Shown here in pieces: positions 39,705 through 52,221 of a stretch of DNA of 64,000 nt (position 1 is its first letter; every line of letters starts with the position of its first letter). The translations under genes and the position numbers were made by a program. The notes below the pieces were generated by a model that had not been told where the DNA came from, did no database searches, and saw only the letters and a list, made by a program, of their open reading frames with translations. The stretch comes from Escherichia phage LF82-1, in sequence record PV648359. One strand, written 5' to 3'.

Positions 39705-40007
39705 TTATTTACCTTTAATTACTTTAGCTGCTTCGATAGCCGCTTGCTGAAGGTCATCCATAGACATACCGAATTTAGAAGCAAAGTTATCAATTTTCTT
39801 TTCGACAGCATTCAAAGGCTTGGCCTGTTTACCTTCATTAGCGCCAGGAAGAGCGAGAATACGCTCTTTGTCAATATAAAGGCTTACAAGTTTCTTACGG
39901 TCTTTATCGGACAAATCATGAAATGAATGGGCCTTTTTATTTATAGCGGCTTCTAATTTACCTGCACTCACTCGCGCTTCAGTAATAAATTCTTGATATG
40001 TTTTCAT
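39705..40007 (-). CDS. ipII: Internal head protein (IPII-like) with capsid-targeting sequence
   Basis: 100 aa; N-terminal MKTYQEFITEARVSAGK is the conserved prohead-protease-cleaved targeting sequence. Confidence 0.8.
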   Translation of the reverse strand: MKTYQEFITEARVSAGKLEAAINKKAHSFHDLSDKDRKKLVSLYIDKERILALPGANEGKQAKPLNAVEKKIDNFASKFGMSMDDLQQAAIEAAKVIKGK

Positions 40008-40071
40008 TTTTTGTTTCCTTGTTTGTTTTGATAGAGTAATTATACCATATTAATACTTAAGCGTAAACAAT

Positions 40072-40332
40072 TTAAGCTTTACCGCCAGAAATAATTCCGA
40101 AGTTGTTAAAATCGTATCCAATATCGTCAACATCTACTTTAGGATTTACTACAACATAAGCAATTTCACTACGTTTTGCATAGGTGTTGATTTCTTTACC
40201 ATCGCCACCTAAGAAAGAATACCCATTACGTTTTAATGAGCCAAAGTCTTCGGCATCACCAATGAAAGCTTTAACTTTAAATTTAGGACCTTTGGCATCT
40301 GCTTCAATGATAAATTCTTGATACATTTTCAT
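40072..40332 (-). CDS. Internal-protein-like small protein with capsid-targeting sequence
   Basis: N-terminal MKMYQEFIIEA. Confidence 0.6.
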   Translation of the reverse strand: MKMYQEFIIEADAKGPKFKVKAFIGDAEDFGSLKRNGYSFLGGDGKEINTYAKRSEIAYVVVNPKVDVDDIGYDFNNFGIISGGKA

Positions 40333-40338
40333 TTTTCC

Positions 40339-40752
40339 TTAGTAAATTGATTTACCATAGTATTTGTACCAAGTAGGACGTTGAGCAATTTTTTCATCTA
40401 AGCGTGCTTGACTTATCGCAACGGACGCTTCGGACGGGACATAATTATTACGAAATTCGGCAGGGATGTCGGAAATATCCTGGACTGTCGTGTCCTTGAT
40501 TTTGAAACCACGTTTCAAGCATTCAGCGATTAGCTCGATTTGTCGTAAACGTAAAAATTCAAGTTTGTCGTAAAAGAATGTTACGTGACCTGTGCCTAAG
40601 ATAAATGTTGGAGAGATTTTAAAATCCTTTACACGTTTACCGTTTTGGACATGTTTACGGACTGCACTAAATACGCGTGGTAATTCACGATACTCAGCCA
40701 TAAGATGTTGATCGGTCAGTTCAGAAACAAGTGTTAAATTGATACGAGTCAT
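40339..40752 (-). CDS. denV: Endonuclease V (pyrimidine-dimer DNA glycosylase) DenV
   Basis: [28 protein letters not shown]...[12 protein letters not shown] matches T4 DenV by recall. Confidence 0.92.
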
Positions 40753-40754
40753 AA

Positions 40755-40810
40755 TTTCCTCCAAGTAGTTGATGAATGTATAGTATCAAAACCCTTGGAG
40801 GAAGTAAACA
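40755..40810 (-). promoter_or_regulatory. Early-promoter stem-loop cassette (arms CCTCCAAG / CTTGGAGG) upstream of denV
   Basis: Plus strand cctccaag...cttggaggaagtaaac. Confidence 0.45.
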
Positions 40811-41092
40811 CTATTTTTCTGAAGCGCCTGAAATATATTTTTCAAGACGTTGTTTCATCAGCGAGCCGTTCTTAGCGATTTCTTCCGGTTTATCGCACAT
40901 ACGTAACAAGGCTTCAAGCTTAGCGATATCGCTGGTACGTTCAAATTTGCGAGTATCTATCTTACTAGCAAGTTCAGAAATACGTGCTAATAGACTTTCG
41001 GCTTCAACCAAAGCTGCACCTAGCTTAGTTGCAAATGTGTCAGTAGCTTCGTTAAGAATAGATTCTGATAAAAATTCACTATATGTTTTCAT
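40811..41092 (-). CDS. Internal-protein-like small protein with capsid-targeting sequence
   Basis: Starts [13 protein letters not shown] immediately after the lysozyme stop. Confidence 0.55.
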
Positions 41093-41577
41093 ATATACGC
41101 TTTCCAAGTTCCTGTTTTAAATGTTGAGATTACGCGTTTCGCGCGATTAGGTGTCTGACGATACCATTTAGATTGGGCGAGATTTACTGCCGCTTCATCC
41201 CAACGTTTCTGTTGAAGCATACGAAGAGAATTAGTAAAACCAGCAACGCCTGCTACACCCATTTGGAAGACCATATTGACCAATGCACACCGACGAACTG
41301 CATCTAAAGAATCATATACCGGTTTAAGTTTAGCATTACCCAAGATTCCGCGAACGGCTTTATCGACGTCTTCATTAAATAGCTTTTCAGCCTCATCAAG
41401 GGTAATTGTACCGTTGCATTTACGACCGATCATTCTGTCAAGTTCAGCTTTAGCTACGGCTAAAGACGGGTTCTTTGTTACCAAGTGGCCTATGCCAATC
41501 GTCCAAAAGCCTTCAGTGTCTTTGTATAAAGTCAGTCTAAGACCTTCGTCATTACGAAGCATTTCAAATATATTCAT
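41089..41577 (-). CDS. e: Endolysin (T4 lysozyme e)
   Basis: [32 protein letters not shown]... near-identical to T4 lysozyme by recall. Confidence 0.95.
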
Positions 41578-41611
41578 AATACCTCCCACGTTTATAGGAG
41601 GTATTTATTAC

Positions 41612-42070
41612 TTATAGGATGGTAGTGAGCACCTTATATAATGATTTGCCCATTACATATTCCCATTGAGAAGGTTTAATTAAAGCGAATGCATCAAATT
41701 CAGGAATCTGTCGTCCGTCCTGGAATGTATGATATGAATTACAAACACTGTTTCTGAATTGCTCGTGCTCTACAGGGATGGTATATAGGAACAGATGAAT
41801 ATTCTTATTGTCTGAGTAATGATGTTCACCTAGGTCTTTCAGGAAGGCAGGGTCATATTGTGTAAACCCAGTTTCTTCTTCGCATTCACGAATAGCGGCT
41901 TCGATAGGAGATTCGCCAGGTTCGACACGGCCTTTAGGAATATCCCACCGATGAGCTAATGCACCTTTAGGACGAGAACCAGTTACACGACCCATGAATA
42001 ATTCTTTATCTTTTGTCATGAAGATAATACCGGCTGATAGTTCTTTCACTTTATTTTTCTTACTCATCAT
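41612..42070 (-). CDS. nudE: Nudix hydrolase NudE
   Basis: Nudix box GRVEPGESPIEAAIRECEEETGF. Confidence 0.88.
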   Translation of the reverse strand: MMSKKNKVKELSAGIIFMTKDKELFMGRVTGSRPKGALAHRWDIPKGRVEPGESPIEAAIRECEEETGFTQYDPAFLKDLGEHHYSDNKNIHLFLYTIPVEHEQFRNSVCNSYHTFQDGRQIPEFDAFALIKPSQWEYVMGKSLYKVLTTIL

Positions 42071-50651: not shown

Positions 50652-50655
50652 TTAA

Positions 50656-50946
50656 TCACCGTACCATATTAATGTAATTATATTCAATGCAACGTAATTT
50701 CAAAGGATTCTTGAAAATATCATATTCAAGAGGGCCTTTTTCTGTTTCAATAAAGAAATCAAAGTTCACACTATTAAATTTGCGGTCTTCCCAAAGTAAT
50801 TTAACCTGTGAAGATGAACGGTCGACGTAAACCTTTTCAACTTCAAAGTGGGTCAAAATACCATAGTAATCGACTAGTGCTTTAGCTGCAGCTCGGTCGC
50901 TTTCATATCCATTCTCAACGGATTTTACCTTAGCATAAAGAATCAT
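50656..50946 (-). CDS. Hypothetical protein (96 aa)
   Basis: ORF track. Confidence 0.5.
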   Translation of the reverse strand: MILYAKVKSVENGYESDRAAAKALVDYYGILTHFEVEKVYVDRSSSQVKLLWEDRKFNSVNFDFFIETEKGPLEYDIFKNPLKLRCIEYNYINMVR

Positions 50947-51323
50947 GAATGTTCCACCATTTCAAAGGTGTGAGCATCAACAATATGATACCAGTCAAAA
51001 TTTTCTTCTGCGTTTTTATAAATTTCGCGAAGAGCCTCAACAGTTTTTCCTGTAGCAACAAGGTCGTCAATACCACCAAGAGGATAACAGTCATAACCAG
51101 CAAACAGAAGGAAATTAATAGTTTCTGTAGGTTCTGGATGCAAAACACCATTATCATCTACCACTTCAAAGAAAGTGTAAGAAGGAGTACAAGTTTTAAT
51201 CCAAGCCCATGCTTGAGCTGCTGAATCAAATGGTCTGCGTATCAAACGACAATCAGGGTCTTTAGAAGGATTTGCTTCAAAATCCGCATATACGTGATAT
51301 TTCATTTTACTCACCTTTTGCAA
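50943..51323 (-). CDS. Hypothetical protein (126 aa)
   Basis: ORF track; ATGA coupling. Confidence 0.5.
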   Translation of the reverse strand: MQKVSKMKYHVYADFEANPSKDPDCRLIRRPFDSAAQAWAWIKTCTPSYTFFEVVDDNGVLHPEPTETINFLLFAGYDCYPLGGIDDLVATGKTVEALREIYKNAEENFDWYHIVDAHTFEMVEHS

Positions 51324-51492
51324 TTTTATCCATAACGATAGCGATTAAGCCGATTAGAAATGCTACTACCAATGAGATAGAATTTTCTGTTGTTGTCAGT
51401 AGTCCACAAATGAATCCTACAAACATCGAAAAACTAAAAGCCATTGAAGCAATTACTACAGCAACATTACGAATCAGTTCAGCGCGTTTCAT
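51307..51492 (-). CDS. Small membrane protein (61 aa)
   Basis: Two hydrophobic helices. Confidence 0.5.
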   Translation of the reverse strand: MKRAELIRNVAVVIASMAFSFSMFVGFICGLLTTTENSISLVVAFLIGLIAIVMDKIAKGE

Positions 51493-51561
51493 TTTATTCT
51501 CCTCAGTAGTTGATAGGGTAATAGTATCACTACCCTATCTAAAAGTAAACGGTTTTATAAA

Positions 51562-51870
51562 CTATTTTATTCCGCGTGATGCAATCGTATTCTGCCGTTT
51601 AACACCAGTTTGTTTAAAGTCATGACTGTCGATTTGATCGGTGCGAGCAACTCCGAATGATGATTTAATCTTAGCTTTAGATCCTTTAGTTATAGAAATA
51701 AACATCTCGGAAGACCCTTTCTTAAAGTCTGATGCAGATACTTCAACACCGTTCTTAGCAAGTGACCTCAGAATTGCATCCGCGTACTCATCATCAAGAC
51801 TCGCTTGAGTATTAATAACAAATGTCTTTGGTGCAGCCGCTTCATTGATAAATTCTTTATAGGTTTTCAT
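51562..51870 (-). CDS. Internal head protein (IPI-like) with capsid-targeting sequence
   Basis: N-terminal MKTYKEFINEA. Confidence 0.65.
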   Translation of the reverse strand: MKTYKEFINEAAAPKTFVINTQASLDDEYADAILRSLAKNGVEVSASDFKKGSSEMFISITKGSKAKIKSSFGVARTDQIDSHDFKQTGVKRQNTIASRGIK

Positions 51871-51892
51871 TTTATTTTCCTAATTAATTTTG

Positions 51893-51930
51893 ATAGGACT
51901 ACTATAACATAGTCCTATTAGCATGTAAAC
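51893..51930 (-). promoter_or_regulatory. Early-promoter stem-loop cassette (GTTTAC-18 nt-TATAGT with extended TGn; arms ATAGGACTA / TAGTCCTAT)
   Basis: Minus sense GTTTACATGCTAATAGGACTATGTTATAGTAGTCCTAT. Confidence 0.55.
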
Positions 51931-51933
51931 TAC

Positions 51934-52221
51934 TTACAGAAGGGTTTTTGCAATAATTTTAAGCTGAGCTACAGAAATATGCTTAGCTTTAAACAGTGCA
52001 GTCTCTTCAGCCGGAGAGATAACAATAGTAGCGCCATCTTTCTTAGCAGACCATCCATCCCCTAAGTAAACAGTACCTTTTACTTCTTCGCCATCAACCA
52101 GACTAATCATTGGTTTACCCTCACGTCCTTTATTTGCTTTAATAACTTCGGAAGTAAGGGTCGCTTCGGTCAGAGTAGAAACGTTAGCATCAGGTGATAT
52201 AAATTCTTTATAGGTTTTCAT
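51934..52221 (-). CDS. Internal head protein (IPI-like) with capsid-targeting sequence
   Basis: N-terminal MKTYKEFISPDA. Confidence 0.65.
   Translation of the reverse strand: MKTYKEFISPDANVSTLTEATLTSEVIKANKGREGKPMISLVDGEEVKGTVYLGDGWSAKKDGATIVISPAEETALFKAKHISVAQLKIIAKTLL

Follow-up and report, generated by a model that had tools for sequence, protein, structure and literature searches.

Six genes with a shared leader peptide in Escherichia phage LF82-1 probably encode T4-type internal head proteins, among them a candidate at a third site beside the tRNA genes

The genes described here lie in a 64,000-nucleotide (nt) stretch of DNA from Escherichia phage LF82-1 (sequence record PV648359), which was analysed as a whole and is called the window below. 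It contains six open reading frames (ORFs), all on the minus strand, whose products start with MKTYQEFIxEA-like leader peptides, and we consider all six likely to be genes for T4-type internal head proteins. Five of them lie within recognized internal-protein loci, and the sixth, p208, is best read as an unrecognized internal protein of the same class, encoded at a third site by the transfer RNA (tRNA) genes. The class itself has been known since the 1970s-1990s, and its role against restriction was extended in 2025. Our finding is largely the rediscovery of an annotated and well-studied class: it has been interpreted in the same way in print, and this genome already bears annotations for five of the six genes; what we add is the exact count of six, examples of cassette exchange and one unannotated family at an unexpected site.

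Over 39600 to 52300, the part of the window that was queried against other genomes, the sequence does not differ from that of Escherichia phage LF82-2 (PV648360) or of eight sibling isolates (100% identity), and it is 95-97% identical to JS09, HX01, Shf125875 and other phages of the RB69 group (genus Mosigvirus). Judged by matching gene coordinates, the window corresponds to record positions 96001-160000. The annotation of PV648360 labels five of the six leader genes as internal head or virion proteins, p208 being the exception. The six genes are as follows (aa, amino acids; pI, isoelectric point; a slash marks a predicted cleavage site):

39705..40007, minus strand: ipII orthologue, 100 aa, leader MKTYQEFITE/A; predicted mature protein of 9.8 kDa, pI 9.7; match to phrog_7857 with E = 4.5e-55; 'internal virion protein' in PV648360
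40072..40332, minus strand: ip86, of the RB69 ORF125c family, 86 aa, leader MKMYQEFIIE/A; 'internal head protein' in PV648360
40811..41092, minus strand: Ip5-like internal head protein, 93 aa, leader ending in LSE/S; match to phrog_3499 with E = 2.1e-46; 'internal head protein' in PV648360
48536..49162, minus strand: p208, candidate internal protein, 208 aa, leader MYTFNEFLAE/TEVITE/AG; predicted mature protein of 21 kDa, pI 9.8; match to phrog_2280 (function unassigned) with E = 1.1e-57
51562..51870, minus strand: Ip7, 102 aa, leader MKTYKEFINE/A; predicted mature protein of 9.9 kDa, pI 9.7; match to phrog_2667 with E = 4.2e-42; named Ip7 by several sources
51934..52221, minus strand: ipI orthologue, 95 aa, leader MKTYKEFISPDANVSTLTE/A; predicted mature IPI* of 76 aa, 8.0 kDa

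The N-termini, encoded at 40007, 40332, 41092, 49162, 51870 and 52221, match exactly the peptides quoted in a preliminary description of this DNA, which had picked the correct ORFs but had given as their positions the low, stop-codon ends. For the third ORF the mechanically assigned start is a TTG at 41107, but the leader begins only with the ATG at 41092, in agreement with the GenBank annotation. When the six-frame translation of the window was scanned with the pattern M..[YF].EF[ILV], six matches were obtained, every one at the start of these ORFs, compared with a mean of 0.08 and a maximum of 1 in 200 shuffled sequences. In the other 106 kb of the genome the pattern occurs at no ORF start, its sole match being internal to the DNA ligase gene, and the 'at least six' genes of the preliminary description are therefore exactly six.

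Within the leaders, position 4 is aromatic in all six proteins (Y, Y, Y, F, Y and Y in the order of the list; T4 IPI likewise has F here), position 7 is Phe in 6/6, and position 8 is Ile or Leu throughout. Glu follows at position 10 in five of them and at position 19 in IPI, which carries Pro10/Asp11 in place of Glu10 and is arranged in this respect like T4 IPI. Read as a sequence motif, the predicted protease site [L/I]xE, with a small residue after it, falls on residues 8-10 in five proteins (ITE/A in IPII, IIE/A in ip86, LSE/S in the Ip5-like protein, LAE/T in p208, where ITE/A follows at 14-16, and INE/A in Ip7) and on residues 17-19 in IPI (LTE/A), which agrees with a mature IPI* of 76 residues.

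In T4, the first 10 residues of IPIII suffice to direct proteins into the prohead core, the leader alone packages foreign proteins, residues 4 and 7 govern targeting while 8 and 10 govern processing by gp21, and each internal protein goes into the head at about 360 copies, to be injected later (PMC9026906). By extension from T4, the leader of about 10 residues, with its aromatic residue 4 and Phe 7, would bind each LF82-1 protein to the prohead scaffolding core; gp21 would cut after the Glu of [L/I]-x-E, that is, after residue 10 in most of the proteins, 19 in IPI and 10 and/or 16 in p208; and the mature protein would stay in the head with the DNA and be injected together with it. Taken as given, the annotation of PV648360 has genes at 6587-8738 for a head maturation protease, for head scaffolding and for a prohead protein.

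Behind the leaders the bodies appear unrelated, as the preliminary description had said. In an all-against-all BLASTP comparison the best match had E = 0.07 (in a six-sequence database). Pfam, NCBIfam and PADLOC returned nothing meaningful for four of the bodies and no enzymatic or defence-related domain, and IPII and IPI gave weak matches to DUF7412 that start at residue 1 and stay below the cut-off. The mature forms of IPII, Ip7, IPI and p208 have a pI of 9.0-9.8. Distant homology between ip86 and Ip7, both of which match phrog_2667, was considered and rejected, as profile-profile comparison of the bodies gave a probability of 0.3%, albeit from two shallow alignments. We note that phrog_2667 matches ip86 (40072-40332) and Ip7 (51562-51870) over almost their full length while their bodies have no detectable relation; it appears to be a mixed family, perhaps merged via the common leader.

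The assignment of five ORFs as T4-type internal-protein genes, which the preliminary description had made for the whole set, is supported by homology, both through family matches and through GenBank annotation. IPI matches the Pfam family PF11634 (IPI_T4) with E = 1.4e-50 and a score of 169.6 bits, the Pfam gathering cut-off being 25, and its residues 20-95 cover all 76 profile positions. The same residues align with PDB 2JUB, the mature protein as solved, at E = 6e-42. IPI shares 88% identity with T4 IPI, from which it differs at 11 of 95 residues, and 99% with RB69 IPI. IPII shares 94% protein identity with T4 IPII and about 96% nucleotide identity over the coding sequence (CDS). The Ip5-like protein is 47-49% identical to Ip5 of T2, RB32 and VR26, and its gene, which begins within the last part of the lysozyme gene e, occupies the place of ipIII in T4. 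Ip7 is 67% identical to RB69 ORF156c. The remaining gene, ip86, starts 7 nt past denV with no promoter of its own visible; its product is 96.5% identical to RB69 ORF125c, whose family is called 'internal head protein' in RefSeq, and homologues were found in 217 phage records, some with the same annotation.

The preliminary description had further suggested that the set consists of injected anti-defence effectors, which is the current published view (PMC12373910, PMC6024577, PMC13390438). T4 Ip1, Ip2 and Ip3 each inhibit a distinct variant of GmrSD, with no cross-protection (Silas 2025, PMC12373910), and RB69 IPI has been reported to protect against GmrSD (PMC6024577). At 88% and 94% identity to the characterized T4 proteins, IPI and IPII of LF82-1 are thus very probably GmrSD inhibitors; of the six proteins, they are the only two whose T4 counterparts have an established anti-defence function. 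They would act on particular type IV nucleases of the GmrSD family, enzymes that also attack the arabinosylated DNA of Mosigvirus phages: BrxU, a member of that family, cuts such DNA (PMC13390438). That the DNA carries arabinose rather than glucose is taken from the literature on Mosigvirus. The Ip5-like protein, Ip7 and the ORF125c-type protein, all of known internal-protein families, are most likely specific inhibitors of other early-acting defence variants.

The sixth gene stands apart from these. All five recognized genes are situated within the two recognized internal-protein loci, 57B/tRNA.4 and e/denV; p208 lies outside both, between genes that resemble RB69 ORF146c and ORF150c and beside tRNA genes. 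Its product is a 'hypothetical protein' or unannotated in 40 of the 40 rows listed for 138 matching phage records, its family has 13 representatives only among 1.84 billion proteins, and no database examined labels it an internal protein; the variant lists of Repoila 1994 and Comeau 2007 could include p208 or the ORF125c family. What links it to the class is the leader, which recurs throughout the family. In JS98-type phages it reads MKTYNEFLNES..L[ST]EAG; further N-termini in the family include MLKFKEF..ISE, MLNFNEFITES, MINFNEFLAESEEMITEAG, MITFNEFLNESEMINEAG and MNFKEFLKEEALNEA; and distant relatives keep M-x-x-[FY]-x-[ED]-[FI]-[LIV]-x-E together with a second [LI]xE[AS]G site. The leader of p208 is encoded by different codons, and at the protein level it is retained in relatives that are only 33-50% identical.

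The slot between the tRNA genes and e.8 holds a p208-family gene in phages of three genera, namely JS98 (Dhakavirus), PG7 (Karamvirus) and LF82-1. Two elements precede the gene in LF82-1:

49198..49205, minus strand: exact match to the T4 late-promoter consensus TATAAATA, 36 nt upstream of the p208 start codon
49207..49235, minus strand: terminator-like hairpin with a T-run, folding energy -16.4 kcal/mol, z = -2.95, at the end of an upstream region resembling T4 rnaC/rnaD

In each of the three genera an exact TATAAATA precedes the start codon by 24-36 nt, and it is the only conserved promoter-like motif upstream of p208; the one sigma-70-type match in this stretch is weak and lies on the opposite strand. 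T4 has neither a counterpart of p208 nor TATAAATA at this slot; the upstream rnaC-type hairpin is present there, and the same hairpin is found in JS98 and Shf125875. A scan for consensus terminators did not pick up the hairpin, which has an internal mismatch, but folding supports it. As a separate observation, the segment upstream of p208 at 49203-49544 is 88% identical to the T4 segment with the small stable RNAs rnaC and rnaD; it gave no Rfam match, and no RNA gene is annotated there in the LF82-2 record. A short ORF at 49185-49328 is probably spurious.

Structure prediction of the bodies, which the preliminary description had proposed, was run for p208 and Ip7 and yielded models for both. 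The AlphaFold2 model of p208 (predicted local distance difference test score, pLDDT, of 73) comprises a three-helix N-terminal domain (residues 23-72), a disordered linker rich in Pro, Lys and Ala (74-112) and a confidently predicted helical C-terminal domain (122-206). Searches with this fold matched nothing in BFVD outside the family itself, and in PDB they gave nothing beyond generic helical hairpins (E > 2). The Ip7 model (pLDDT 65 overall, about 80 at residues 15-71) shows a small alpha/beta core with a disordered basic tail, for which the fold search found generic ACT/ferredoxin-like alpha/beta domains only (E >= 0.017). Two other connections of p208 were rejected: a weak TonB match is due to the composition of its Pro/Lys linker, and BLAST among the leader-bearing proteins gave no match between p208 and IPIII at E up to 0.01.

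The family diverges fast. Identity between genera is 33-66%, phages otherwise about 95% identical in DNA have barely alignable p208 alleles, and two relatives carry a different C-terminal domain. RB69 ORF149c/148c is a p208 homologue by profile comparison (91% probability), and we observed that ORF149c and ORF148c, at 13429-13991 of the RB69 stretch compared (NC_004928), look like one gene of the p208 family that a frameshift has broken in two, which is either a pseudogene or a sequencing error in the 2003 record. Shf125875 has a leader-bearing protein of 154 residues in the same slot; its direct profile comparison with p208 reached a probability of only 23%, and it appears to be linked to p208 via an intermediate, P0051, judging from the sequences as read by eye.

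From these observations we tentatively propose, with a little less than even confidence, that the p208 family (phrog_2280) is packaged by its leader, processed by gp21 and injected, and that it would represent a third, late-promoter-driven internal-protein locus in Mosigvirus, Dhakavirus, Karamvirus and related phages, encoding a larger effector that takes part in an arms race of its own, possibly against a target other than the known GmrSD variants. Its modular build, with a variable N-terminal domain, a disordered basic linker and an exchangeable helical C-terminal domain, and the sharp divergence of its alleles between near-identical phages would be the marks of such an effector. Several points weigh against this proposal or against an internal-protein reading of the whole set. 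Position 2 of p208 is Tyr, while most leaders have Lys there. The octamer TATAAATA occurs in the window at chance frequency (7 found, 7.7 expected), and the evidence is therefore limited to where it lies and to its being conserved in JS98 and PG7. Internal-protein genes are said to be absent outside the two loci (PMC2839356), and p208 lies outside, so that its locus would be a third. The fold searches provided no functional lead for p208 or Ip7. Mature ip86 and the mature Ip5-like protein are near neutral (pI 6.3-6.4), whereas T4 internal proteins are basic. Across 15 GmrSD clusters, ip4-10, including ip7, gave no reproducible inhibition (Silas 2025, PMC12373910), and our literature search found no virion proteomics or N-terminal data covering the p208 family in any phage or the six proteins of LF82-1.

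The negative result with ip4-10 means that the targets of four of the six proteins need not be GmrSD, and it supports a different account of these four, in which the Ip5-like protein, Ip7, the ORF125c-type protein and p208 would be injected effectors acting on targets other than GmrSD, either further early-acting defences or functions of host takeover. The unrelated sequences of the bodies agree with this account, as do the contrast between the small ACT/ferredoxin-like alpha/beta core predicted for Ip7 and the all-helical model of p208, and the precedent of Alt, another injected T4 head protein, which is a host-takeover enzyme (PMC9026906). Yet the three T4 internal proteins with a known target all act on GmrSD variants, which have very low sequence similarity to each other; the phages assayed by Silas 2025 were glucosylated T-even phages rather than arabinosylated ones, so that the right target could easily have been missed (PMC12373910); and no enzymatic or defence-related domain was detected in these proteins with the databases named above. 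We regard this account as rather unlikely, if still worth serious attention.

Somewhat less probable again is that p208 is packaged in the head but serves there as a core-associated or a DNA-condensing protein, resembling the morphogenetic side of IPIII, with the linker contacting DNA and the helical domains contacting the scaffold, and plays no part in anti-defence. With its predicted mature form of 21 kDa and pI 9.8, p208 is the largest of the six and about the size of T4 IPIII, which at about 20 kDa is among the basic T4 internal proteins and whose mutants assemble heads more slowly (PMC9026906). The 40-residue disordered linker rich in Lys, Pro and Ala would suit a DNA-condensing protein, the late consensus is the only conserved promoter-like motif upstream, and the slot is constant in three genera, unlike the classic internal-protein cassettes, which are present or absent from phage to phage. 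However, T4 has no p208 counterpart in this slot, and the protein is thus dispensable for head assembly of the T4 type; the fast divergence and the exchanged C-terminal domain form the pattern expected of arms-race genes; and T4 IPIII itself proved to be a GmrSD inhibitor (PMC12373910), so that morphogenetic and anti-defence roles are not mutually exclusive.

A further explanation concerns the leader as such and the DNA that precedes it. Upstream of three of the genes we found similar elements:

40008..40077, minus strand: putative T4-early-type promoter cassette (GTTTAC ... TATAAT) and 5' untranslated region (UTR) upstream of ipII, aligning with the upstream regions of ip7 and ipI; promoter assigned by consensus
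51871..51933, minus strand: putative T4-early-type promoter with an embedded stem-loop (GTTTAC ... AGGACTA/TAGTCCT ... TATAGT) upstream of ip7, from sequence reading and alignment
52222..52291, minus strand: putative T4-early-type promoter with a stem-loop (GTTTAC ... GGATGATGG/CTATCATCC) upstream of ipI, by consensus

The common cassette of ipI, ip7 and ipII extends from the promoter and stem-loop through the first ~10 codons of the leader. PeSL-like elements at internal-protein loci have been proposed as recombination sites (PMC2839356), and the element upstream of ip7 has such a form; as far as this source relates them, elements of promoter and stem-loop form at these loci were described by Repoila and by Arbiol et al. 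That the common N-terminus is nothing more than a trace of recombination, copied along with promoter, UTR and first codons and without a packaging role in some of the proteins, is what this conserved stretch and the proposed recombination sites might suggest, but it is very improbable, as the leader also occurs in ip86, the Ip5-like gene and p208, which lack the upstream cassette, the p208 leader is kept at the protein level with different codons in strongly diverged relatives, and the conserved residues are those that mutagenesis has shown to matter in T4 (targeting depends on 4 and 7, processing on 8 and 10), where the leader alone is sufficient to package foreign proteins (PMC9026906).

The same elements may bear on how the genes move, and we picture the internal-protein genes as residing in cassettes that can be exchanged. 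The region is colinear with that of RB69, at 92-97% identity, except in three places, the ipII slot, the p208 slot and the ipI locus. The ipII cassette (39672-40020) has 93% DNA identity to T4, while the flanking genes have 70-81%, and in RB69 the slot is filled by two other leader-bearing genes, ORF123c and ORF124c; the cassette looks imported from a T4-like phage into Mosigvirus, the different DNA modifications notwithstanding. The p208 slot has no similarity to the RB69 sequence at the same position. At the ipI locus (window 51503-52242, compared with 16404-17140 of the RB69 stretch, NC_004928), ipI and the Ip7-type gene have swapped places with respect to RB69; ipI is about 97% identical in DNA, the Ip7-type gene about 70%. 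The T4-like ipII in a phage with arabinose DNA and the reversed ipI/ip7 order are clear examples of cassette exchange. In addition, intergenic stretches of ~35-90 nt cross-match several RB69 intergenic sites (39976-40034, 43670-43766, 44979-45046, 48046-48092, 48423-48489, 51824-51935 and 52199-52233); those at the internal-protein genes are the T4-early promoter and stem-loop cassettes, and the stretches may be recombination substrates for gene shuffling in the variable region.

The wider gene order follows that of T4, with gene 1, 57A, 57B, the ipI locus, tRNA.4-tRNA.2, the tRNAs, the e.x genes, nudE, e, denV, ipII and the vs genes. Within this region, three adjacent small ORFs on the minus strand at 45044-45241, 45251-45523 and 45533-45838 encode 65, 90 and 101 aa, all ending in G-x-W-V-[SA]-S-S-x-x-C; from their sequences they look like tandem paralogues corresponding to RB69 ORF136c-139c.

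If p208 is packaged, catalogues of injected anti-defence candidates that are compiled from the two classic loci alone, or by annotation, overlook a family that at least 138 sequenced phages carry, and the leader motif would be the better search key; our reading of p208, if true, would contradict the published confinement of internal-protein genes to two loci. The size of the set, six, is not unusually large. The preliminary description had called it larger than the three of T4 and had mentioned the different sugar on the DNA beside it, but a 20-kb stretch of RB69 holds at least seven leader genes, more than 30 internal-protein variants are attributed to Repoila 1994 and Comeau 2007 in the account that cites them (PMC2839356), and nothing was found that links gene number and sugar.

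With T4, the LF82-1 set shares the leader pattern M-K-T-[YF]-x-E-F-[IL]-x-E and the protease motif [L/I]xE. IPI (88%) and IPII (94%) are direct orthologues of the T4 proteins, the genomic surroundings are likewise 57B-ipI-tRNA.4 and e/denV, and IPI retains its unusual 19-residue propeptide. Unlike T4, LF82-1 is without an IPIII orthologue and has the Ip5-like gene beside e and the ORF125c-type gene between denV and ipII; it has six genes rather than three, one of them, p208, outside both loci, and according to the Mosigvirus literature its DNA would carry arabinose instead of glucose. IPI and IPII are close orthologues of two of the three T4 GmrSD inhibitors, whose specificity is known to be narrow, and IPI differs from its T4 counterpart at the 11 residues mentioned above. 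In the T-even repertoire (Ip4-Ip10 and more), as far as the published account describes it, unrelated bodies likewise follow a common leader, exchange is cassette-like and early promoter/stem-loop elements lie between the genes; the Ip5-like protein and Ip7 of LF82-1 belong to named families of this repertoire. In the 20-kb stretch of RB69, the motif scan gave six leader genes, to which ORF127c, an internal head protein in RefSeq, is added. For p208, the counterparts are RB69 ORF149c/148c, JS98 orf135 and PG7_146 (phrog_2280), which share the tRNA/e.8 slot, the leader and the domain layout and are all called 'hypothetical'; JS98 and PG7 also share the upstream TATAAATA, the RB69 copy is split by its frameshift, and p208 can hardly be aligned with the alleles of RB69 and Shf125875, for which profile comparison gives probabilities of 91% and 23%.

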